This document shows, in pieces, positions 11,064-42,786 of a stretch of DNA of 64,000 nucleotides. Source of the stretch: an uncultured Candidatus Saccharibacteria bacterium (GTDB taxonomy: Bacteria; Patescibacteriota; CALEFQ01; G965231055); the NCBI GenBank assembly GCA_965231055.1, contig OZ246411.1:473875-537874 (forward strand), given 5' to 3'. Positions within the stretch are counted from its first letter, which is position 1, and each line of letters begins with the position of its first letter. Below the pieces are notes generated by a model. It was not told the origin of the DNA. It ran no database searches and saw nothing but the letters and a program-made list of their open reading frames with translations. The position numbers and the translations under genes were made by a program.

Positions 11064-11138
11064 GCCGACTTAGCTCAGTGGTAGAGCAGCTGTTTTGTAA
11101 ACAGCAGGTCATCGGTTCAAGTCCGATAGTCGGCTCCA
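11064..11138 (+). tRNA. tRNA-Thr (anticodon TGT)
   Basis: Cloverleaf folded by hand: acceptor GCCGACT/AGTCGGC, anticodon stem GCTGT/ACAGC, loop TTTGTAA, T-arm GGTTCAAGTCC, 3' CCA encoded. Confidence 0.85.
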
Positions 11139-11202
11139 CGTCGCCACTGCGTTCGAGTGGAATCAAGGCAAGGTGTAGTACATTTAAAAGCAAAATAATT
11201 CT

Positions 11203-11288
11203 GGGTAGGTACCAAAGCGGTCAACTGGGTCAGACTGTAAATCTGATGCCTCCGGGCTTCGGGGGTTCGAATCCCTCCCTACCCACCA
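11203..11288 (+). tRNA. tRNA-Tyr (anticodon GTA), with a long variable arm
   Basis: Acceptor GGGTAGG/CCTACCC, anticodon loop CTGTAAA, long variable arm, T-arm GGTTCGAATCC, CCA encoded. Confidence 0.85.
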
Positions 11289-11407
11289 TGAAGTTAGGTT
11301 TTAGGTTCTAGGTCATGACTTCTTAAACAATGCAGTATTAAAACTTATAACCTCACACCTAAAACCTACCATCTAACACCTAGCACCTATAACCTAACAC
11401 CTCGTAA

Positions 11408-11483
11408 GGGCAGTTGGCTCAGTTGGTAGAGCGTTCGCGTCACATGCGAAAGGTCATAGGTTCGAATCCTATACTGCCCACCA
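11408..11483 (+). tRNA. tRNA-Val (anticodon CAC)
   Basis: Acceptor GGGCAGT/ACTGCCC, anticodon stem TTCGC/GCGAA, loop GTCACAT, T-arm GGTTCGAATCC, CCA encoded. Confidence 0.8.
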
Positions 11484-11585
11484 CTGATTAGCTTTTAGGT
11501 TATAGGTTTTAGGTCGCGACTTCTTAAAAAACGCTTGGTGCTAAAACCTAAAACCTGACATCTAAAATCTAATACCTAGTAATTA

Positions 11586-11662
11586 GGCCGTTGTAGCTCA
11601 GATGGTAGAGCAACTCCATGGTAAGGAGTAGGTCCGCGGTTCAATTCCGCGCAACGGCTCCA
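11586..11662 (+). tRNA. tRNA-Thr (anticodon GGT)
   Basis: Acceptor GGCCGTT/AACGGCT, anticodon stem ACTCC/GGAGT, loop ATGGTAA, T-arm GGTTCAATTCC, CCA encoded. Confidence 0.8.
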
Positions 11663-11764
11663 CATAACTAGGTTTCAGGTGATAGGTTCTAGGGATCAGA
11701 AGAACTAGGAATTGGCGATTTCTTCTAATCCACCCAATTTATTAATTATTAATTGATATATATT

Positions 11765-11935
11765 ATGAGCAAGAGCAAAGAAAATCTAGTAGTTCTGAAA
11801 TGCACAAAGTGTAATGAAGAAAATTACCACACTTTTAAAAATCGCAAGCTTCATCAGGACAAACTTGAGTTAAACAAGTATTGTTCCAAGTGCAAGATTC
11901 ATACTCCTCACAAGGAGATTAAGAAAAAAGGATAA
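11765..11935 (+). CDS. rpmG: 50S ribosomal protein bL33
   Basis: MSKSKENLVVLKCTKCNEENYHTFKNRKLHQDKLELNKYCSKCKIHTPHKE: a four-Cys zinc-ribbon L33. The tracked ORF is trimmed to the ATG at 11765. The gene is embedded in the tRNA cluster. Confidence 0.88.
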   Translation: MSKSKENLVVLKCTKCNEENYHTFKNRKLHQDKLELNKYCSKCKIHTPHKEIKKKG

Positions 11936-11974
11936 TTGGTAAGGGCTATTAGCGATAAGCTAATAGCTTCTGTT

Positions 11975-12048
11975 AGGGGGCATGGTTTAGTGGTAGAACA
12001 CTGGTCTCCAAAACCAGGGATGTGGGTTCGATTCCTACTGCCCCCGCC
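11975..12048 (+). tRNA. tRNA-Trp (anticodon CCA)
   Basis: Acceptor GGGGGCA/TGCCCCC, anticodon stem CTGGT/ACCAG, loop CTCCAAA, T-arm GGTTCGATTCC, CCA encoded. Confidence 0.82.
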
Positions 12049-12135
12049 AGACGGTTTTGTGTTTATCTGTTTGTATTTGCTTTTTTTATTCAATAGTACT
12101 GGTTGAATTTTTAAAGCAGGATTTAAGTTTAATAC

Positions 12136-12225
12136 GGAGAGGTGGCAGAGTGGTCGATCGCGCTGGTTTTGAAAACCAGTGTCCACTTTTGTGGACCGGG
12201 GGTTCGAATCCCTCCCTCTCCGCCA
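12136..12225 (+). tRNA. tRNA-Ser (anticodon TGA), with a long variable arm
   Basis: Acceptor GGAGAGG/CCTCTCC, anticodon loop TTTGAAA, long variable arm (GTCCACTTTTGTGGACC), T-arm GGTTCGAATCC, CCA encoded. Confidence 0.85.
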
Positions 12226-32815: not shown

Positions 32816-34540
32816 TTGGAAAATAGTCTAATAGACAAAAGAATAAAGATTTTTCTCTGGCTCATAAGTTTTTTGGGAGCTATTGTTTTTATGCGCTTGG
32901 TGTCTTTGCAAATCCTTGATCACACCAAATACAAAGCTTTGGCTGAAGGGCAGCGAAGCTTTTTTGAATCGCTAGAACCAAAAAGAGGAGAGGTTGTAAC
33001 CAAGGATAGTAAAACTCAAGAGCTTTATCCTTTGGCGATGAATAAAGTGTATTTTCAAATCTATGTTGTTCCAAGGGAAGTAGAAAATCCTGATGAGGTA
33101 GCCAGGGTTGTTTCGCAGATTTTGGATATGGATATAAATGAAATTTATTCCAAAGTCACTAAAGATAAAGATGATCCTTATGAGCCAATCGCTGACAAGG
33201 TGGAAAAAGACAAAATTGATCAGATTGAATCTTCAAATCTCAAGGGTGTTCACTTCCAAGAAAAATATTTCAGAGCATATCCTGAAGGGTCGCTTGCATC
33301 TCATATTCTCGGGTATCTAGGTTATGACAATGAGGGAGTTCTCAGAGGATTTGGGGGAGTTGAAGCCTATTACAATTCAGAGCTTCAAGGGGAAAAGGGA
33401 GAAGTTGAGCTGGAGCGCGATGCTGCTGGGAGATGGATACCAATAGGATCAAAGGATGAAAAACCGGCGAAAGATGGAGATACTATAGTATTAACCATAG
33501 ATAGATCAGTTCAGGCTGTTCTTGAAAAAGAGCTAAGAACAATAATGGAAAAACTTACTCCCGATTCTGTGTCTGGAGTCTTTATGGAACCCAAGACTGG
33601 AAAAATCATAGCCATGTCAAATCTTCCAAATTATGATCCAAATAAATACAACGAGGTTGAAAACGTAAGTATTTTCAACAACAACGCTGTGTTTGATGTT
33701 TTTGAGCCAGGTTCTATTTTCAAACCATTCGTAGTTGCTTCGGCATTGGATCAGGGGGTTATTAATCCTGAAGACAAATTTAATGATTCTGGTGCGGTTA
33801 AAATAGGTTCATATACTATTAGAAATTCTGACAATAAAGGACACGGAGAAGTGAGTGTGGTTCAGGCACTTGATAAATCGCTCAATGTTGTTATGGTGGA
33901 GATAGCTAGAAAAGTCGGGATAGATAAACTCTATCCATATTACGAAAAATTTGGATTCAATTCCTATTCTGGAATTGATTTGCTTGGCGAGAATATAGCT
34001 GGTCTTGATGATAAGAAAAAATGGCAAGAATTGGATTTGGCAACTTCGAGCTTCGGTCAGGGTAAAATAGTGCTAAACGCCATGCAAATACTCAAGGCTT
34101 ATTCTTCATTTGCGAATGGTGGAGCCATGGTCAATCCTAGAATTGTAGAAAAATTTATACATCCAGATGGGACAGAAAGCGTGGTTGAAACCAAGTTTGA
34201 TTCTCAGCCAATATCTTCAAAAACAGCTACTACTATTAGCGCCATGCTTATTAGTAATGTTGAAAATGGATATTCTCATTACGCCAAAGTCAATGGATAT
34301 ACAATAGCTGGAAAAACCGGTACGGCTCAAATGCCAAATAAAGACAAGCCAGGATATGGAGGCGAGAAGCTTGTTTCTTTTGTGGGGTATGGTCCGGTAG
34401 AGGATCCTGAGGTGATAGCTATTATATGGGCAAAGAATCCAAAAGGAAGTTCTGTCTGGGGAGAAACCATAGCAGCTCCAGTATTTAGCAAGGTGGCTTC
34501 ATTTATTTTTCAAGATAGACAAATTATTCCCACAGAATGA
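32816..34540 (+). CDS. Penicillin-binding protein 2 / FtsI-type transpeptidase
   Basis: N-terminal TM segment, transpeptidase motifs SIFK (SxxK), SDN (SxN) and KTGTA (KTG). Confidence 0.88.
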   Translation: MENSLIDKRIKIFLWLISFLGAIVFMRLVSLQILDHTKYKALAEGQRSFFESLEPKRGEVVTKDSKTQELYPLAMNKVYFQIYVVPREVENPDEVARVVSQILDMDINEIYSKVTKDKDDPYEPIADKVEKDKIDQIESSNLKGVHFQEKYFRAYPEGSLASHILGYLGYDNEGVLRGFGGVEAYYNSELQGEKGEVELERDAAGRWIPIGSKDEKPAKDGDTIVLTIDRSVQAVLEKELRTIMEKLTPDSVSGVFMEPKTGKIIAMSNLPNYDPNKYNEVENVSIFNNNAVFDVFEPGSIFKPFVVASALDQGVINPEDKFNDSGAVKIGSYTIRNSDNKGHGEVSVVQALDKSLNVVMVEIARKVGIDKLYPYYEKFGFNSYSGIDLLGENIAGLDDKKKWQELDLATSSFGQGKIVLNAMQILKAYSSFANGGAMVNPRIVEKFIHPDGTESVVETKFDSQPISSKTATTISAMLISNVENGYSHYAKVNGYTIAGKTGTAQMPNKDKPGYGGEKLVSFVGYGPVEDPEVIAIIWAKNPKGSSVWGETIAAPVFSKVASFIFQDRQIIPTE

Positions 34541-35862: not shown

Positions 35863-36076
35863 ATTTTGTATATTGACTAACGTGCTTAGTATTGATAATG
35901 TTTCATTCTGTTAGTCCCGCCGCTGCGGGATCCCGCAACGGCGGGATGTTCGATATTCAGTATTCAATGTTCATTATGCTATAAGATTAAAACAAAACGT
36001 TGAGCTACGAAAATTTATTGATTGAAGCTCATATCTGAGCACTGAACACTGAAAACTGACTGCTGACACCTAATAA

Positions 36077-36154
36077 GGCGCTATCGTCTAGCCTGGCCTA
36101 GGACGCTAGGTTCTCATCCTAGTAACTCGGGTTCGAATCCCGATAGCGCTGCCA
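36077..36154 (+). tRNA. tRNA-Glu (anticodon CTC)
   Basis: Acceptor GGCGCTA/TAGCGCT with a G1-U72 wobble, anticodon stem CTAGG/CCTAG, loop TTCTCAT, T-arm GGTTCGAATCC, CCA encoded. Confidence 0.7.
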
Positions 36155-36190: not shown

Positions 36191-36217
36191 AAAAACCCCC
36201 GAGAGGGGGATTTTTTG
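36191..36217 (+). terminator. Rho-independent terminator after tRNA-Glu
   Basis: CCCCC-GAGA-GGGGG followed by TTTTTT. Confidence 0.7.
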
Positions 36218-36379
36218 TGCTTGTTTCAGCGCAAAAGCCGGTCAAAATAAATTGTTTCCCATGGGAAGCAGTTTTTCTGCGCTATGACATATCTTGGTGA
36301 ATCAAGCAATATCCATGTGGGACGTTTGAACTTCGCTTATGCAGCTTGCCGTGAGTCTTATTCGTGATATCATTTATTT

Positions 36380-36919
36380 ATGGAAAAATTCGACATAATT
36401 GACAAGGACGGAAATAAAACGGGAGAATCTATTCCTCGCGACAAAGTGCATCGCGAGGGGCTTTGGCATAAGAGCGTCCATGTTTGGATTATTAATGATA
36501 AAAACGAGCTCCTTCTTCAGAAGCGATCGCCGGAAAAAGATTCTCACCCCAATGAATGGGACATATCTACAGCCGGACATATTCATAGTGGAGAAACTCC
36601 AATTAATACCGCAATTCGTGAAGCCAAAGAAGAACTGGGCATAGACGTAAAAGAGAACGAGCTTGAAAAGCTTTGTACTCTCAAGAATCAAAGTGTCCAA
36701 CGAGATGGAAAATTTATAAATAATGAACTTGTGGATGTTTATCTCGTCAGAAAGAACCTTGATTTAAACAAGCTCACGCTTCAGCCGGAAGAAGTTTCAG
36801 AAGTTAAGTTGATACAATACAAAAATCTCCAGAGGATCATTGCCAGAGAAACTCCCGGCTATGTTTTGCACAAAGAAGAATGCGCGAAGTTATTTGAAGT
36901 TCTAGATAAACGCGTCTAA
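36380..36919 (+). CDS. NUDIX hydrolase
   Basis: Nudix box GHIHSGETPINTAIREAKEELGI. It is the first gene of the tRNA-Glu-adjacent island. Confidence 0.85.
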   Translation: MEKFDIIDKDGNKTGESIPRDKVHREGLWHKSVHVWIINDKNELLLQKRSPEKDSHPNEWDISTAGHIHSGETPINTAIREAKEELGIDVKENELEKLCTLKNQSVQRDGKFINNELVDVYLVRKNLDLNKLTLQPEEVSEVKLIQYKNLQRIIARETPGYVLHKEECAKLFEVLDKRV

Positions 36920-36922
36920 CGA

Positions 36923-37072
36923 CTACTTATTTGCATCTTCCCGATAGATGACCTTGAATAGCCTCAAGACTTTGGATGCAACTCTGTGCGCTTCTTCATC
37001 ATCCATCTCCGTGCCGTAGTCCTCGCGCATGATCTGTTTGAATTCCTCTAGCTTGTGCTTTGGAATTTCCAT
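36923..37072 (-). CDS. Possible small acidic protein (49 aa, MEIPKHKLEEFKQIMREDYGTEMDDEEAHRVASKVLRLFKVIYREDANK). Not in the ORF track.
   Basis: Hand-found ORF on the minus strand between the Nudix gene and the next gene. No homology could be assessed. Confidence 0.25.
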   Translation of the reverse strand: MEIPKHKLEEFKQIMREDYGTEMDDEEAHRVASKVLRLFKVIYREDANK

Positions 37073-37166
37073 ATTTGTCTATTTATTATCCAAGATGTGT
37101 GTATTTTAACGTACAGTCAAAAAACCAGCCAGTGGATTTAGTAAAAACTTTATTAAGGCAATAAAA

Positions 37167-37877
37167 ATGGTTGATGTTAAAACAATCAAAATACTGGACG
37201 AGGTTGGCGGTGATCGATTCGAAAAAGCTTACTATGATATTTTTCTTCAGAATGAATTTTCGAATTACGAGAAATTCTGGCAAAAATATGTAGTTCCTCT
37301 TACCAACAGGCCGGCAGACTTGAATTTACTGGATCCTGTTGAATTGAGTAAACGAGGAAACGATGACCGAGATGTATGTATCGCACAACTTCACTACACA
37401 GTCTTAATGCATCTCATCCGCGTTTATAACATTAGACAAATAAAAACTCTAAATCTGGACGAATTCACGGAAGGCATTGTCAGATTGTCAGCTTCAACGG
37501 ATGTTGCAGATGAGCTTCTTGGACGAATGACATCGAAAGAAAAATATGACCCCTGGAATGAAGAACATGAAAAAGATTCTAGGCGAGACTGGCGAAAAGC
37601 CGGAAACGATCAGCTCCAATGGTTAAGAGATTATAGAAATAGGCAACTACACAGCATGGTTGCGCCATCGATAATCATTTATGGGAGTTACGAGCGACTT
37701 CGCGTTCCTAGATTTCGAAAGGAAAAAAAATATATGGATTGGCGTAATGTTACAAGTGTATCCATCGGTAGCGGGGGTATAGTAAGGAACGACTACGATT
37801 CGCCAAATAATTTAATTAATCACGCTTGGTCAGAAGTCCTCAAATATCTCAATGACCAGTGGGCAAAAGTTATATGA
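37167..37877 (+). CDS. Hypothetical protein, first gene of an overlapping pair. It contains an Rx4H motif (RNRQLH) that could indicate a HEPN-like fold.
   Basis: 236-aa ORF. Its stop overlaps the next gene's start in an ATGA arrangement. The short motif match alone is weak. Confidence 0.5.
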   Translation: MVDVKTIKILDEVGGDRFEKAYYDIFLQNEFSNYEKFWQKYVVPLTNRPADLNLLDPVELSKRGNDDRDVCIAQLHYTVLMHLIRVYNIRQIKTLNLDEFTEGIVRLSASTDVADELLGRMTSKEKYDPWNEEHEKDSRRDWRKAGNDQLQWLRDYRNRQLHSMVAPSIIIYGSYERLRVPRFRKEKKYMDWRNVTSVSIGSGGIVRNDYDSPNNLINHAWSEVLKYLNDQWAKVI

Positions 37878-38425
37878 TTATAAAAATTTATTGGAGGTGT
37901 AATAGTCTAGAAAGAGAAGTTTATGTTATAAAAAAAGAATGGGGATACGTCTCTGGTTTCGTGTACCCCATTATGCTGACGGATATTAAACATTTTCTAC
38001 CTCATTGGACTTATCACGGGGAATCAGGAAGGCCACCAGTAATACACCACAAGTCGTTTACTGGAAAAGAGATAGAGTTTATGACATTAAAAGCCGACTA
38101 TTTAAGAAAGTTTTCTGAATTTAATAATACGGTGATACATTCAACGCCTTCGTATGGCGCCAGTTTCCAAATTTTAGGGTGGGCCAATAATACAAAGGAT
38201 TATCCAGCTCATTACGACAGAAAAATCGTTTTTGATATCGATCTGTGTGATGCGAATCAGACTAGATATGTTCACATTCTTCTGCTGGATCGAAACTCGA
38301 AACAGCTAAAGGAAAAATGTGCAGATCTCGTCGGCAAGCATTATGAACTGATATCCTACGAGGTAATAGATGACGGTAATCAGCCGAACATTATGATATT
38401 ATTTACAGCAAATAAATCGATTTAA
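37874..38425 (+). CDS. Hypothetical protein, second gene of the overlapping pair
   Basis: ORF translationally coupled by the ATGA overlap at 37874-37877. The tracked ORF begins at 37859; the start is chosen at the ATG at 37874. No recognisable domain. Confidence 0.45.
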   Translation: MIIKIYWRCNSLEREVYVIKKEWGYVSGFVYPIMLTDIKHFLPHWTYHGESGRPPVIHHKSFTGKEIEFMTLKADYLRKFSEFNNTVIHSTPSYGASFQILGWANNTKDYPAHYDRKIVFDIDLCDANQTRYVHILLLDRNSKQLKEKCADLVGKHYELISYEVIDDGNQPNIMILFTANKSI

Positions 38426-38459
38426 ATGAAGTTTAGAAAAAAGTCTAGAGACTTAAATA

Positions 38460-38984
38460 TTGAAGAAAAATATGGCTCTGAGTAGAAAAATTGTGAAATT
38501 GGTTGAATACAATCCTGAGTGGCCAGGTTTTTTTAAGACGGAAGCTCGAAAACTTGGAAAGATTTTGAAATTGGATCGCTCAAGAATCGAACACGTCGGT
38601 AGCACTGCAATACCAGGTATGTCGGCGAAATCGGTTATAGATATTGCAGTTGGCGTCAGCTCAGTAGGTGAATTTGGCAAATATCAAGAGATGCTCAAAA
38701 AAGCCGGATATGTACTTCGTCCAAATGCGGGCTCGACTGGCAGGCAGTTCTATGCCAAGGGAGCAGAGAATTCTAGGACCCATTATGTACATCTAGTCGA
38801 ATACAAGAACGGTGAATGGGAAAACCTAATAAAATTTAGAGATTATCTAATCAAGAATCCTGACAAGGCGCAGGAATATGCAACGCTCAAGCAGGAGCTT
38901 GCCGATAAGTATCCCAATGACAGAGATTCATATAAGAGAGGTAAGGAGGAATTTATTGCAAAAATATTGGTTATGTCTAAATAA
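38460..38984 (+). CDS. GrpB-family protein (UPF0157, nucleotidyltransferase fold)
   Basis: LVEYNPEWPGFF...IEHVGSTAIPGMSAKSVIDIAV...HYVHLVEY, the GrpB signature. Confidence 0.75.
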   Translation: MKKNMALSRKIVKLVEYNPEWPGFFKTEARKLGKILKLDRSRIEHVGSTAIPGMSAKSVIDIAVGVSSVGEFGKYQEMLKKAGYVLRPNAGSTGRQFYAKGAENSRTHYVHLVEYKNGEWENLIKFRDYLIKNPDKAQEYATLKQELADKYPNDRDSYKRGKEEFIAKILVMSK

Positions 38985-39117
38985 CTATCCACAGAAACAC
39001 TTCTCTCCAGAAACAACCAAGATTGTGTAGTTCCTTGAATATGCCATTATTATTTTTATAATTAGTGATATATGAAATACTCAAGAAGAAAATTAAATAA
39101 AAAAGAGTGTATAAAAA

Positions 39118-40464
39118 ATGCTAATCGCATCGGTTAACTTAAATAAAAGACTGGGGAATTTAAAATCCAGGAATAAAGCTCACAATTGGATGTTGAGCGG
39201 CGATTTTGGAATTGTGGTAGCCCAAGAACCTTGGCGAAAATCATCAGATTTTAATGGGATGTTTGATGAGTTTAAACCCATCGGTGGGAATGAAAAAGTA
39301 TTTGCTTGGATTGACTCTAACTATGAAATACCAAGCCAAAAGCTTATAAAAGAATATTTGCAGCGGATAGAGCTTGATTATGTGATTATTTATAATGTTT
39401 ATTTGGATGCTTATAAGCAATCAAAAAGAGCTGAGCAGATAAGCGAGATAAAGAAATGTGCCATGCATGAAGGAAATAGACCGATACTTATCGTTGGTGA
39501 TTTTAATCTTGCGCCAAATCCAAAGGACGGCTTGTTTAATGGGAAATCAAGCGCCTTTAATTCTGAAATCGATAGGAAACCCTTTAGGGATTTGCTAACT
39601 AAATGCAAATTAAATGACTCCACAGCTGATTTTTCAAAAGAAAAATTCACGATAGAAAAATGCATTCACGGCAAGACATCTAAATTCAGGTGTGATTTGG
39701 CTTTGGTTTCTGACTATCTGTTGGATGATATTTCTGTTTCCTATGATCACTCTATTAGGATAGGTGGTGGCGCTTTTACTGATCATTCGGCGATAAGGCT
39801 AAATGCTCCCGTGAGTCTTCCAGGGTCACTCAATAAAACTGGATTGCTTTTTTCGACGAAGAATGAGCAGGGGAATAAATTTGAAAATGATTACGGCGCT
39901 CCATGCTGCTCTTATAAAACAGCTATGTCACGAAAATCGGAATCTCCGATAGCACGTTTTGTGCACGAGGAGCTGAGTAGTAGCTTGAAAATAGCGTCAA
40001 TTTTGGACTATGGATGTGGAAGAGGCGTAGATGTAGGATATTATTTAAAAAATGGCTATCAATGCGATGGTTATGATCCGCATGAGCTTTTTGGCTTCAG
40101 CATCTTGCCAAATAAGCAATATGATTTGATTACTATAATATTTGTGTTGAACGTACTTCCCGATCCATTTCAAAGACTTCAAGTCTTGGAAAAAGCAGCA
40201 AAGTATATGAAAGATGACGGCATGATGTTGGTGGTTTGTCGTTCTCCTAAAGAAATAGCCAGCGAAGTCTCTAAAAAATGCTGGATAAAACATAATGATG
40301 GATTTTGGTCGCACCAAGGTAGGAAAACTTTTCAAAAAGGAATCTCTCGTGAAGAAATTATTAGGCTTGCGAAAAGAGTAAACCTAGTTCCTTATGACCT
40401 AAGCGAAAGCATTAAATATCCGAATAATGCCTCTTTCCTTATATTGAAAAACAAAATCCATTAA
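39118..40464 (+). CDS. Fusion protein: N-terminal endonuclease/exonuclease/phosphatase (EEP) domain plus C-terminal class-I SAM-dependent methyltransferase domain
   Basis: EEP motifs (VVAQEPW; ILIVGDFNLAPN; FTDHSAIRLN) are followed by MTase motif I (ILDYGCGRGVDVGYY) and a post-I acidic motif (DLITIIFVLNVL). Confidence 0.7.
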   Translation: MLIASVNLNKRLGNLKSRNKAHNWMLSGDFGIVVAQEPWRKSSDFNGMFDEFKPIGGNEKVFAWIDSNYEIPSQKLIKEYLQRIELDYVIIYNVYLDAYKQSKRAEQISEIKKCAMHEGNRPILIVGDFNLAPNPKDGLFNGKSSAFNSEIDRKPFRDLLTKCKLNDSTADFSKEKFTIEKCIHGKTSKFRCDLALVSDYLLDDISVSYDHSIRIGGGAFTDHSAIRLNAPVSLPGSLNKTGLLFSTKNEQGNKFENDYGAPCCSYKTAMSRKSESPIARFVHEELSSSLKIASILDYGCGRGVDVGYYLKNGYQCDGYDPHELFGFSILPNKQYDLITIIFVLNVLPDPFQRLQVLEKAAKYMKDDGMMLVVCRSPKEIASEVSKKCWIKHNDGFWSHQGRKTFQKGISREEIIRLAKRVNLVPYDLSESIKYPNNASFLILKNKIH

Positions 40465-40781: not shown

Positions 40782-41867
40782 ATGAAAAACAAAGAAAAAA
40801 ATATATCTGTATTCTGGATAGTAAAAAAGCTAATCACACTCAATAAAAAGGGTGTTTTTAGATATTTATTTAGAGCATGGAGAGTTATTTTCAATATTCC
40901 CGTCGCGTATTTCCGCAGAAAAGCCAATGCAAGGAATGGGCTAGAAGTTTCAAAGGGGGTAGGTATTAGCCCCACCTCAAGATGCAATTATAGTTGCAAG
41001 GGATGCTACGCGAGATTTAATATTGACGAAAAAGAATTGGATACTAGTGTTTTTGATAGATTTCTTTTTGAAGCTGAAAAAGAAGGAGTTATATTTGTTG
41101 TGGTGAGCGGGGGAGAACCTTTCGCTAAACCCGACATGATTGATTTGTTTGAGAGACATAGAAAGATGTTTTTTCTCGTGATAACGAATGGTAGTTATCT
41201 AAATAAAAAACTCATTATGCGGATTCGGAAATCTGCAAATGTAGTTGTTGTCGTGAGCGTGGAAGGAGATAAAAATCAGACTGATTTTAGAAGGGGATCG
41301 GGTGCATATGAAACTTCCTTAAACGCGATGAGGTTACTTCGTTTGTCAGATGTTCCTTTTGGTTTTTCTGTGACCCTGACTAGGCGCAATATTTCTATGT
41401 TTCAAGAATATTCGTTTATAGGTAAAATGATTGATGAAGGGGCTTTACTTGGTTTTTTCAATACGCTAGTTCCTTTTTCAAAAGAAGACATAGAATTTGT
41501 TCCCGACAAAGAAGATCTAATAAAGTTTACTGAGAACATAAATAATATTAGAAAAAAGCGTTCTATTGCTATCATGCATCTACCTGACGATGAATATATT
41601 GGGTACGAAAAATGTTTATTTGTAAATGGAGGCGCTTTTCATGTAAATTCCCAGGGATATGTGGAACCGTGTCCTTTTGCTCATTTTGCTGTTGAAAATA
41701 TATCAAAAAGCTCATTCAAGGATGTCCTTAGGTCTCCTTTTTTGAAAGCGATACGAGAAGATGATAAGCTATTGAAGAAGGGGGAGCTTGGATGCTCTTT
41801 AGTTAGCCATTATGAAGAATTAAATAAATTAGCTATAAAATATGGAGCCAAAATCACAAAAAACTAA
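40782..41867 (+). CDS. Radical SAM enzyme with a C-terminal SPASM/twitch-type auxiliary Cys motif
   Basis: CX3CX2C (SPTSRCNYSCKGCYA), GGEP motif (VVSGGEPF), and a C-terminal CLFVNGGAFHVNSQGYVEPCPF...GCSL pattern typical of SPASM/twitch domains. Confidence 0.78.
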   Translation: MKNKEKNISVFWIVKKLITLNKKGVFRYLFRAWRVIFNIPVAYFRRKANARNGLEVSKGVGISPTSRCNYSCKGCYARFNIDEKELDTSVFDRFLFEAEKEGVIFVVVSGGEPFAKPDMIDLFERHRKMFFLVITNGSYLNKKLIMRIRKSANVVVVVSVEGDKNQTDFRRGSGAYETSLNAMRLLRLSDVPFGFSVTLTRRNISMFQEYSFIGKMIDEGALLGFFNTLVPFSKEDIEFVPDKEDLIKFTENINNIRKKRSIAIMHLPDDEYIGYEKCLFVNGGAFHVNSQGYVEPCPFAHFAVENISKSSFKDVLRSPFLKAIREDDKLLKKGELGCSLVSHYEELNKLAIKYGAKITKN

Positions 41868-42786
41868 TACCGTTGAACTTTTGCATAGACACGATGACGC
41901 CACATCAAATTTTATAATAGAGTATTTGAAAAATGATGATGGGTTTATTGAACTAGCAAAAAAAGAAACAGCTCGCATATTGAAACGAGACCAGGATGAT
42001 CTCGAAAAGCTTGAAAAAGGAATACAGTATTCAATAAAAAGAGGAATCTTAAGGAGTGATATCTCGATTCCCTCTGCCAAAAAAGTTTTTGTGGAAAATA
42101 AAAATTCAGATGAAGTGGCTGATGAAATACTTTCTCAGGTTGCGGGGAATGCTGATGTTGGGGGAGTTTTGGTGGCTATAGATGGGCTATCTGGAACTGG
42201 CAAGGGTACTACCGTAAAAAAACTTCTCAAGAAAATGCCAAATAGTCTACCATGGTCAAACGGGGATGTTTTTAGGAGTCTCACTTATTTTGTTGTGAAC
42301 TATCTTAATTCACACAAAATTAATTTTAGCGAAAAAGAATTAGCTCCTGATTTAATGAAAGAGGCAGTTGGAAAAATTGCCTTTGAAGAAAATAAAAACG
42401 GATTTGATTTGTTTGTGATTGGAGATAATAAAAAAGAAAGAGTCGCTGACATAAGGGATACAAGACTCAAAGAGCCAAGAGTAGCAGAAAGAATTCCTAT
42501 GATTTCATGTCTCACTCAGGGTGAAGTAATAAATTTTACTAACGACGCCGTTTCAAAACTTAAAAATCATGGAAAAAATATAATTATTGAAGGTAGGAGA
42601 GTGACACTACGATATCTTGATACCCAAAATAGATTTGAGCTTTCTATTTCTGACAAAAATGTATTGGGTCAAAGAAGGGCTGCTCAGAGAATTTCAGCAA
42701 TGGCAATGGATCTACTTAATTTGGGGAGCGTCTCCCAATCAGCATTAATAAATGAAGCGCTCAATAAAATAATTAAAGAAGACTAA
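41842..42786 (+). CDS. Cytidylate-kinase-like P-loop NMP kinase with an N-terminal extension of about 110 aa
   Basis: Walker A LVAIDGLSGTGKGTT, a Cmk-like IIEGRRVTL (compare DGRDIGT), and a C-terminal LGQRRAAQR. It overlaps the radical-SAM gene by 26 nt in another frame. Confidence 0.6.
   Translation: MEPKSQKTNTVELLHRHDDATSNFIIEYLKNDDGFIELAKKETARILKRDQDDLEKLEKGIQYSIKRGILRSDISIPSAKKVFVENKNSDEVADEILSQVAGNADVGGVLVAIDGLSGTGKGTTVKKLLKKMPNSLPWSNGDVFRSLTYFVVNYLNSHKINFSEKELAPDLMKEAVGKIAFEENKNGFDLFVIGDNKKERVADIRDTRLKEPRVAERIPMISCLTQGEVINFTNDAVSKLKNHGKNIIIEGRRVTLRYLDTQNRFELSISDKNVLGQRRAAQRISAMAMDLLNLGSVSQSALINEALNKIIKED

Follow-up and report, generated by a model that had tools for sequence, protein, structure and literature searches.

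In the published description of HEPN proteins, helix 3 ends with the motif, the arginine is followed by a polar residue, in most cases N, D or H, and a second acidic residue lies upstream in helix 2, typically within an Ex3[KR] sequence (PMC3710099). A number of HEPN families occur in the operons of restriction-modification (R-M) systems, including Abi2/AbiD/AbiF, ApeA, AbiU2, MAE_28990-like and RiboL-PSP (Anantharaman et al. 2013, PMC3710099). The anticodon nucleases PrrC and RloC are linked to type I R-M systems (PMC2610378, PMC3874168; Table 1 of PMC3710099). HepT-MntA (HEPN-MNT) toxin-antitoxin systems couple a HEPN protein to a minimal nucleotidyltransferase (PMC7641770, PMC4621449).

We have studied a locus with apparent similarities to these systems, lying in a stretch of DNA of 64 kb (the window). 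Two open reading frames with overlapping ends, ORF1 and ORF2, are followed by a gene for a GrpB protein. The original prediction read ORF1 and ORF2 as a candidate two-gene toxin-antitoxin or abortive-infection module. We find that ORF1 belongs to a large and unnamed protein family that has no conserved partner.

Results

Organization of the locus

The overlapping pair, the GrpB gene next to it (PF04229) and the RNRQLH motif of ORF1 are as originally described, and the same ORF1 and ORF2 are called independently on a Logan contig. The features are as follows.

36077-36154, + strand: tRNA-Glu (CTC), with a terminator-like hairpin behind it (36196-36209)
36197-39081, no strand: extent of the independent Logan contig, 2,885 bp, with coordinates mapped by offset
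36380-36919, + strand: NUDIX hydrolase gene (PF00293, E 5.5e-19), first gene of a compositionally atypical block
36923-37072, - strand: 49-aa ORF in the interval from NUDIX to ORF1; a gene call of the Logan contig
37167-37877, + strand: ORF1, 236 aa, belonging to an unnamed HEPN-like family without a Pfam model; predicted metal-independent RNase
37383-37397, + strand: A73-Q-L-H-Y77, family-specific block in helix 67-90
37500-37526, + strand: D112-V-A-D-E116-L-L-G-R120, conserved acidic residue and Ex3R, both within long helix 97-122
37635-37652, + strand: Rx4H motif R157-N-R-Q-L-H162, preceded by Y156; best-conserved block of the family
37874-37877, + strand: ATGA overlap, ORF2 start over ORF1 stop (TGA 37875-37877)
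37874-38425, + strand: ORF2, 183 aa from the ATG at 37874; probable orphan protein-coding gene
38460-38984, + strand: GrpB gene (PF04229, a nucleotidyltransferase-fold family); likelier start ATG 38472

ORF2 is 183 aa in length, compared with the 184 aa given previously; with the GTG at 37859 as its start, the length would be 188 aa. The GrpB protein matches PF04229 with E 1.2e-49 and 168.9 bits (Pfam gathering score 25.5), over residues 12-170 and model positions 2-157 of 159. No Pfam match was found for the 49-aa ORF. There is no terminator-like site between ORF1 and ORF2, nor from there on to GrpB, and ORF1 and ORF2 would be co-transcribed and translationally coupled. However, PBP2 and MurF of the same genome likewise overlap by 4 nt (34537-34540). 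ATGA overlaps are thus ordinary in this compact genome, and the overlap alone carries little information.

ORF1 belongs to a large unnamed family

A word search with ORF1 gave 40 homologs. By profile search, 759 representatives were retrieved with a cut-off of E ≤ 1e-3, a number that falls to 357 with E ≤ 1e-10. The family comprises 759 clusters at 50% identity, every one of which is annotated as hypothetical, and its distribution is patchy, scattered over many phyla. ORF1 gave nothing above threshold against Pfam, NCBIfam, PADLOC or PHROGs. Searching at E ≤ 1 with the family profile A2 for a bridge to annotated HEPN proteins retrieved unannotated family members only. No match was obtained by tblastn against plasmid and phage collections, from which the family is absent, and a scan of viral contigs revealed no relative.

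Residue conservation was counted in 102 diverse family members. Within and just before the Rx4H motif, Y156 is present in 100/102, R157 in 101/102 and H162 in 100/102, with a spacing of 4 from R to H. Position 158 is occupied by N (94), H (5) or D (3) and by no other residue, and the sequence Y-R-[N/H/D]-x3-H is kept in at least 100/102 members. Upstream, D112 is found in 101/101 sequences, E116 in 91/102 (replaced by D in 5) and R120 in 90/102 (replaced by K in 3). The AQLHY block is also well kept (Q 89, L 95, H 82 and Y 97 of 102). The conserved polar residues include Q74, H76, D191, W192 and R193, and an N-terminal part of 66 residues is conserved in the family; the HEPN model considered below leaves that part and those five residues unexplained.

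Assignment to the HEPN superfamily

The three sequence marks of HEPN proteins coincide in the ORF1 family at the expected sites of the predicted helices 97-122 and 151-162. An AlphaFold2 model of ORF1 is helical and confident, with a pLDDT of 92. Taken for its secondary structure only, the model predicts that helix 151-162 ends at H162 and is followed by a loop and a hairpin, with a long C-terminal helix at 213-235. The active site would combine R157, N158 and H162, where one helix ends, with E116 and R120 of a neighboring helix, and by analogy with other HEPN enzymes the protein would probably act as a dimer.

Profile comparisons gave weak matches to HEPN models. With 24,736 models there were some 54 weak family-level matches, about 7 of them to five HEPN families of Pfam. 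The five are PF18737 (4.2e-4, in 1/102 members), PF18735, PF18734, PF18730 and PF18739, all below the curated cut-offs; the matches to PF18730 and PF18739 cover the motif in the proteins concerned. The family consensus also matched the PADLOC model CARF2--CARF_HEPN weakly (E 2e-4, residues 88-158). The three HEPN matches with a reported position lie on or just ahead of the Rx4H motif, and the weak HEPN profile matches depend largely on this short motif itself. No family member reached the threshold of a curated HEPN model, plurality consensus sequences gave no match in Pfam, and there was no PADLOC match for the window protein.

Sequence profile searches of the PDB (A1, A2) returned chance matches only (a nanobody and Prp19), and a Foldseek comparison of the model with PDB and BFVD, made to see whether it superposes on the four-helix up-down bundle of solved HEPN domains, gave nothing at E ≤ 0.001. 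The top PDB match was a HEPN protein, Csx1 (6qzt), at a non-significant E of 1.5 and probability 0.10, and the HEPN structure 1wwp was listed with a TM score of 0.49 normalised to the target, likewise not significant (E 9). With no significant structural match despite the pLDDT of 92, the HEPN fold is not established. From the conserved sequence features we infer that the ORF1 family belongs to the HEPN superfamily. The HEPN call, rated weak when first made, is now strengthened by the conservation of the motif, the Ex3R sequence, the repeated weak profile matches and the defence contexts described below, but not as far as the fold.

Could the motif have arisen by convergence? ORF1 would then be a helical protein without a role in defence, acting in RNA processing or the stress response, or a non-HEPN enzyme using Q74, H76, D112 and D191. 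This would fit the failure of structural and profile searches to give a significant match with HEPN proteins, the lack of a PADLOC match for the window protein, the extra conserved polar residues and N-terminal region left over by the HEPN model, and the housekeeping contexts of some members. It has to contend with three independent HEPN marks at the expected helix positions, with the share of HEPN families among the weak Pfam matches and with the repeated embedding of the family in type I R-M operons. We consider it unlikely.

Genomic neighborhoods of the family

We surveyed 106 loci with a family member, corresponding to 75 dereplicated places. HsdM/HsdS/HsdR is the only type of neighbor that recurs for a functional reason, and no partner family recurs in the 75 places. 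Four of the 75 lie inside R-M operons; most family members are located elsewhere. In L026/L027 and L028/L029 the family gene is flanked by hsdS and hsdR, with overlaps of 4 nt; the two closest relatives with a readable context are placed between these genes. In L010 an HsdS remnant overlaps the family gene, with DUF4268 and DUF2779 downstream, and in L021 Mrr and a type I R-M system are found 2.5 kb away. The other neighbors include RES, KAP NTPase, Schlafen/AlbA_2, FRG, AAA_21, GmrSD with HNH, integrase and SocA_Panacea. Plain housekeeping neighborhoods make up about one third of the contexts that could be read (L018, L019, L020, L023).

Many members have no adjacent small gene, for example L018, L020 and L023. 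Others have tightly packed neighbors that are mutually unrelated: genes of 241 aa (with a 4-nt overlap) and 239 aa downstream in L028 and L010, and of 294 aa and 219 aa upstream in L003 and L025, respectively. Frameshifted copies of the family gene are present in L011 and L013. HEPN-like neighbors were considered as possible paralogs of the family; the resemblance amounts to only 6-8 bits around the motif, and paralogy is not claimed.

The reading that we favor, and hold to be probable by a modest measure, is that ORF1 is a stand-alone member of an undescribed HEPN family, a predicted metal-independent RNase that serves as a mobile single-gene effector of defence or abortive infection and has been carried here on a foreign cassette. 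Members of the family are often found in defence islands, and several lineages have the gene inserted in a type I R-M operon between hsdS and hsdR.

ORF2 is an orphan

When compared with 5.8 billion proteins, ORF2 matched itself only. Searches of Pfam, NCBIfam, PHROGs and the PDB gave nothing, a PADLOC scan yielded no match above threshold, tblastn against plasmids and phages gave no match, and a relative of ORF2 lies beside a family member in 0/106 loci. Comparison with the neighbors of homologs of ORF1 gave a best BLAST E of 0.79, i.e., no resemblance, and ORF2 does not correspond to an extra domain of the longer family members. It matches a SAVED model at 13.8 bits and E 0.005, below the safe threshold, and a single-sequence AlphaFold2 model has a pLDDT of 35.

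Is ORF2 a gene at all? If it were a spurious or decaying frame, the pair would be an artefact of annotation, and the orphan status of the protein, its low codon score and the very low confidence of its structural model might be read in that way. Yet the chance of a 183-codon open frame at 37% G+C is about 9e-7 per start and the ORF2 frame is the best scoring of the six, from which ORF2 is probably a real gene. The codon score is equally low in ORF1, a proven family member, and the sequence recurs without change in four samples. A spurious frame is quite improbable.

A further possibility is that ORF1 is a toxin and ORF2 an antitoxin or sensor that evolves fast or was recruited recently, kept in fixed ratio by the ATGA coupling. 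The overlap, the absence of a terminator-like site between the genes and the atypical codon usage common to both are in keeping with this, as are the need of a solo RNase for restraint and the packed, unrelated neighbors in L028, L010, L003 and L025. On the other hand, homologs of ORF2 are found nowhere, including the 106 family loci, many members (such as L018, L020 and L023) stand alone, overlaps of the ATGA kind, such as that of PBP2 and MurF, are commonplace here, and the ORF2 model is unstructured. We give this arrangement a low probability.

The original prediction had named lack of co-conservation of the pair as the result that would speak against it, and that lack is what we observe. 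ORF1 is placed in an unnamed HEPN-like family, and ORF2 has no relative of any kind. A conserved toxin-antitoxin pair is not supported at this locus, which should not be classed as a novel system of two genes. Within the favored single-gene reading, ORF2 may be a lineage-specific regulator, and, more speculatively, may restrain or trigger ORF1.

GrpB is a bystander

The original prediction had also pointed to the pairing of HEPN proteins with minimal nucleotidyltransferases as a known toxin-antitoxin theme. On such a reading of the locus, GrpB would take the role of MntA, modifying or neutralizing ORF1. GrpB has a nucleotidyltransferase fold by its family assignment, it is on the same strand as ORF1 with no terminator-like site between, and its codon usage is somewhat atypical (z -2.0). 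However, GrpB is two genes downstream of ORF1, with ORF2 between, whereas the known HEPN-MNT pairs are adjacent genes (PMC7641770, PMC4621449). GrpB is beside another family member in 0/106 loci, no precomputed PF04229 assignment appears in the context tables, and ORF1 is not of the DUF86/HepT type, being about twice that size. We regard an MntA role for GrpB as extremely unlikely. GrpB is an unrelated neighbor, and adjacency alone accounts here for what looked like a toxin-antitoxin pair and like the HEPN-nucleotidyltransferase theme. The NUDIX gene has no relative beside a family member either (0/106 loci).

A candidate variable cassette

The Logan contig is present in four samples, and carries the NUDIX gene, the 49-aa ORF, ORF1, ORF2 and GrpB. 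We take 36197-39081 to be a candidate variable cassette. Synonymous codon usage is atypical throughout the block from NUDIX to GrpB, with z between -2.0 and -3.3 for the four larger genes (NUDIX -3.3, ORF1 -2.95, ORF2 -2.58). Searches for an att-type direct repeat of the tRNA-Glu and for repeats at the cassette ends found none, no integrase is present among the neighboring genes scanned, and there are no R-M genes or hsd-like sequences within the 64-kb window. The earlier description of a tRNA-adjacent island is borne out in part, by the tRNA-Glu gene at 36077-36154 and the atypical codons, but not by a tRNA repeat or an integrase. ORF1 would have arrived in the window on a small, compositionally foreign cassette beside tRNA-Glu.

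Discussion

The locus resembles HepT-MntA systems in having a HEPN-like candidate RNase and a nucleotidyltransferase-fold gene in one string of genes. It differs in that the nucleotidyltransferase is GrpB, which is separated from ORF1 and never accompanies another family member, and in that the sequence of ORF1 is unrelated to DUF86/HepT. Resemblance to CARF-HEPN and SAVED effectors (Csm6, Csx1, Cap4-like) consists of the weak matches to CARF_HEPN (in its HEPN half) and Csx1 and of ORF2 to SAVED, all below the safe threshold. Unlike those effectors, there is no demonstrable CARF or SAVED domain, no cyclase or CD-NTase is shown, and no CRISPR or CBASS genes are nearby. The bold idea that GrpB, ORF2 (with its weak SAVED-like match) and ORF1 as HEPN effector form a three-part signaling defence system has almost no support.

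PrrC and several HEPN genes of the Abi type share with the ORF1 family a placement in type I R-M operons. As with PrrC and RloC, relatives of ORF1 are predicted HEPN-type nucleases located in a type I R-M operon by hsdS and hsdR (L026/L027, L028/L029 and L010). The analogy suggests that the family gene in these operons may encode a latent RNase that backs up the restriction complex or is held by it. ORF1, in contrast to PrrC and RloC, has only about 235 aa with no ABC ATPase domain and no P-loop family match, and the copy in the window has no R-M genes within 64 kb. More boldly, the family might be a structurally new minimal 'guardian' RNase, silenced by the restriction complex in the manner of PrrC but without an ATPase; in this genome such control would have been given up in favor of ORF2, a private and newly evolved partner acting as a de novo antitoxin or sensor. 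The odds of this are poor. The tie to type I R-M operons is of wider interest, as a compact and latent ATPase-free RNase would be a simple model for abortive-infection backup of restriction.

The HEPN families of R-M operons offer a further parallel. They have in common with the ORF1 family the Y-R-[NHD]-x3-H sequence at a helix end, the upstream Ex3R and an all-helical core with inserts, as well as a patchy, single-gene occurrence with some members in R-M operons. The ORF1 family differs in having no match to a curated model at threshold and no significant structural neighbor, and in its conserved 66-residue N-terminal region, the AQLHY block, the beta-hairpin after the motif and the D-W-R sequence, none of which the other families are known to have. 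The family now defined is unnamed, runs to several hundred sequence clusters and is missed by the curated libraries, and R157, N158, H162 and E116 provide a predicted catalytic center for it. Immediately after the motif, the near-invariant G163 and R164 of the family are S and M in the window protein.

Gene organization around ORF1

The most likely reading of ORF1 is that it encodes a predicted stand-alone HEPN-type latent RNase from a new family. Enzymes of its kind, HEPN-type RNases accompanying restriction systems, are already known; it is the family that is new. The genes under study are organized as follows.

37167-37877, + strand, ORF1, 236 aa
37874-38425, + strand, ORF2, 183 aa, ATG start at 37874
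38460-38984, third gene, GrpB (PF04229, E = 1.2e-49)

The two ORFs share an ATGA sequence, in which the ATG of ORF2 at 37874 also contains the TGA stop of ORF1; an alternative start for ORF2 is possible at a GTG at 37859. Independent gene calling on a 2,885-bp Logan contig of identical sequence agrees with the genes of the window, giving the order NUDIX, an oppositely oriented 49-aa ORF, the 236-aa gene, the 183-aa gene and GrpB. The overlapping pair and downstream GrpB of the original prediction are thus confirmed, as is the length of ORF1, while ORF2 has 183 aa rather than 184. The four-base overlap is unremarkable in this window, since PBP2 and MurF likewise share four bases.

ORF1 belongs to an unnamed family

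Sequence searches indicate that ORF1 is a member of a real, unnamed family. It has no match to any Pfam, NCBIfam, PADLOC or PHROGs model. A word-indexed search returned 40 homologs with 29-54% identity, all 40 unannotated, and a full profile search with HMMER over 1.84 billion representatives gave 759 family representatives at E ≤ 1e-3, of which 357 reached E ≤ 1e-10. Every source giving a name calls the members 'hypothetical protein'. Matches in genomes extend over many phyla, among them Bacteroidales, Nitrospirae, Deltaproteobacteria, Chloroflexia, Verrucomicrobiales, Actinomycetes and Spirochaetota, and none was found in plasmid, phage or viral-contig collections. Five members match Pfam DUF6548 weakly (best 0.0027; family alignments A1 and A2), and frameshift-split members at two loci (L011:5959-6723 and L013:3256-4010) are apparent pseudogenes.

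Conserved residues and predicted fold

Conservation was counted in A2, comprising 102 diverse family members. The most conserved block is Y156-R157-N158-x-L160-x-H162, with Y156 in 100 members, R157 in 101 and H162 in 100; position 158 is N in 94, H in five and D in three. Upstream of this Rx4H block D112 is invariant (101 of 101), and E116 and R120 make up an Ex3R motif (E in 91 of the 102 and D in five; R in 90 and K in three). Further conserved blocks are G15-D16-x2-E19, T46-x-R48-P49, A73-Q-L-H-Y77 and Y189-x-D191-W192-R193.

Four marks of the HEPN superfamily are given in its reference analysis: the Rx4-6H motif, a polar residue directly following the R (mostly N, D or H), a second acidic residue in helix 2 (typically in Ex3[KR]), and location of the motif at the end of helix 3, where the loop to helix 4 begins (PMC3710099). 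All four are found in the ORF1 family, which has in common with the superfamily the Rx4H, the N, H or D after the R, the Ex3R and a motif that closes a helix, the helix placement being taken from an AlphaFold2 model of ORF1.

This model, calculated from a 40-sequence alignment (pLDDT 92.3, pTM 0.89), has a long helix 97-122 that holds E116 and R120, and a helix 151-162 closed by the Rx4H motif, followed by a hairpin 169-181, short helices and a long C-terminal helix 213-235. From the modeled secondary structure, residues 67-90, 97-122, 151-162 and 213-235 would correspond to HEPN helices 1 to 4, with 123-150 as the usual variable insert and 1-66 as a probable family-specific addition. Foldseek comparison of the model with PDB and BFVD gave nothing significant. 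The best-ranked PDB match was the HEPN protein Csx1 (E = 1.5, not significant), and the best target-normalized TM scores, about 0.5 and likewise not significant, were for the HEPN structure 1wwp and two four-helix '23S rRNA IVS' proteins.

HEPN models make up only a few dozen of the 24,736 in Pfam. No family member reached a curated HEPN threshold, and profile searches of PDB sequences with the ORF1 family gave chance matches only. The weak family matches cluster on five HEPN models, which together contribute about seven of some 54 weak family-level matches to the Pfam models. Three of the five are HEPN_RiboL-PSP, HEPN_AbiU2 and HEPN_MAE_28990 (best 4.2e-4). The other two match over the motif, HEPN_Cthe2314 in P0156 (residues 179-199, motif 191-196) and HEPN_Apea in P0180 (178-230, motif 221-226). 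This clustering is far from random, yet much of the signal is the motif itself. Residues 88-158 of the family consensus, covering the two helices preceding the motif, match PADLOC CARF2--CARF_HEPN in its HEPN half (E = 2e-4, profile positions 297-368 of 404).

The four marks and the concentration of weak matches on HEPN models strengthen what had been a weak guess from the RNRQLH motif of ORF1. Since the profile and fold evidence is suggestive rather than decisive, we regard membership of the HEPN superfamily as probable, not proven.

Genomic neighborhoods of the family

Genomic context was read at 106 loci with a family member; dereplication leaves 75 places. On all-against-all clustering, the only neighbor families present in at least three places were HsdM (four), HsdS (three), HsdR (three) and a ubiquitous short-chain dehydrogenase. 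The closest relatives of ORF1 with readable context, P0004 (53% identity) and P0005 (51%), lie in type I R-M operons, flanked by hsdS and hsdR and with 4-nt overlaps; these operons are related to each other and are therefore counted as one lineage. Three further R-M cases are independent: L010, in which the family gene is overlapped by an HsdS remnant and has DUF4268 and DUF2779 after it; L021, with HsdM-Mrr-HsdS at 2.5 kb from the family gene; and L076. HEPN genes inside R-M operons have been described before (Table 1 of PMC3710099). Other family members have the following neighbors.

L003: conjugative element
L006: GYF + GIY-YIG
L008: GmrSD + HNH
L009: RES + KAP NTPase
L012: Schlafen/AlbA_2 + FRG
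L013: AAA_21
L024: integrase
L025: SocA_Panacea

PrrC is reportedly an example of a HEPN gene within an R-M operon. At L018-L020 and L023 the context is plainly housekeeping. Several genes directly beside ORF1 homologs have a hydrophobic-R-[NHS]-x3-H motif of their own.

L007:540-1142, FRHALAH, weak match to HEPN_MAE_28990
L008:5413-5922, LRNDISH, weak matches to Cas13b, CARF_HEPN and Csx1 models
L013:4060-5130, IRSQLVH
L028:4324-5049, FRNKLSH
L031:3-440, FRNHLEH

Paired HEPN-like genes may be a recurring arrangement. The neighborhoods of the family are without a conserved partner, but have a defense flavor.

ORF2 and GrpB

The original prediction took ORF1 and ORF2 as a candidate toxin-antitoxin pair, with HEPN-nucleotidyltransferase pairing as a theme, to be judged by co-conservation. 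Both proposals fail by that measure: ORF2 and GrpB have no relative at any of the 106 family loci, and the same holds for the NUDIX gene and the EEP-methyltransferase downstream. The GrpB family is widespread, and its member here is tied to ORF1 by position alone.

Among 5.8 billion proteins ORF2 matched only itself, and it had no match in Pfam, NCBIfam, PHROGs, PDB sequences, plasmids or phages. Nor did it resemble neighbors of the homologs or the extensions of longer family members. A single-sequence structure model was unusable (pLDDT 35). ORF2 has probably not arisen as an open frame by chance: at this composition the probability is about 9e-7 per start, and among the six frames its own has the highest score. 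Residues 129-180 gave one 13.8-bit match to PADLOC SAVED4--SAVED_LON (E = 0.005), notable beside a HEPN-like gene and too weak to interpret; we treat ORF2 as a SAVED protein as unsupported.

A candidate cassette beside tRNA-Glu

Further features close to ORF1 are listed here.

36077-36154, tRNA-Glu
36196-36209, terminator-like hairpin after tRNA-Glu
36923-37072, - strand, 49-aa ORF divergent from ORF1, called on the Logan contig, no family match

Synonymous codon usage, referred to 200-codon samples of the window's long genes, is atypical for NUDIX (z = -3.3), ORF1 (-2.95), ORF2 (-2.6) and GrpB (-2.0), and typical in genes beyond this block. The Logan contig, present in four samples, has borders at exactly 36197 and 39081. 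Together, the codon usage and these borders suggest that 36197-39081 is a small, strain-variable cassette, in which ORF1 would have been carried here as foreign DNA along with the orphan gene ORF2. Neither flanking nor att-like repeats were found for the cassette, no integrase among the neighboring genes scanned, no hsd gene in the 64-kb window, and no terminator-like site on the + strand from ORF1 to 40713. Between the end of murF and tRNA-Glu lies a G+C-rich nested palindrome (CCCGCCGCTGCGGGATCCCGCAACGGCGGG, 35915-35950) that may act in termination or bind a protein.

Other observations in the window

The 448-aa product of 39118-40464 is a fusion of an N-terminal half like endonuclease/exonuclease/phosphatase proteins with a SAM methyltransferase half. 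The latter resembles TIGR04096, a methyltransferase associated with DNA phosphorothioation (4e-15, below the cut-off), and PADLOC mad2 (4e-5). A radical SAM + SPASM gene (40782-41867) overlaps a cytidylate-kinase-like P-loop gene (41842-42786) by 26 nt. Its radical SAM core, and only the core, matches PADLOC pVip models (7.8e-15 and 8.5e-12); the two genes could form a viperin-plus-kinase-like pair, unless the similarity is simply that of radical SAM proteins in general. A 1.2-kb stretch at 11064-12225 holds a cluster of six tRNA genes (Thr, Tyr, Val, Thr, Trp, Ser).
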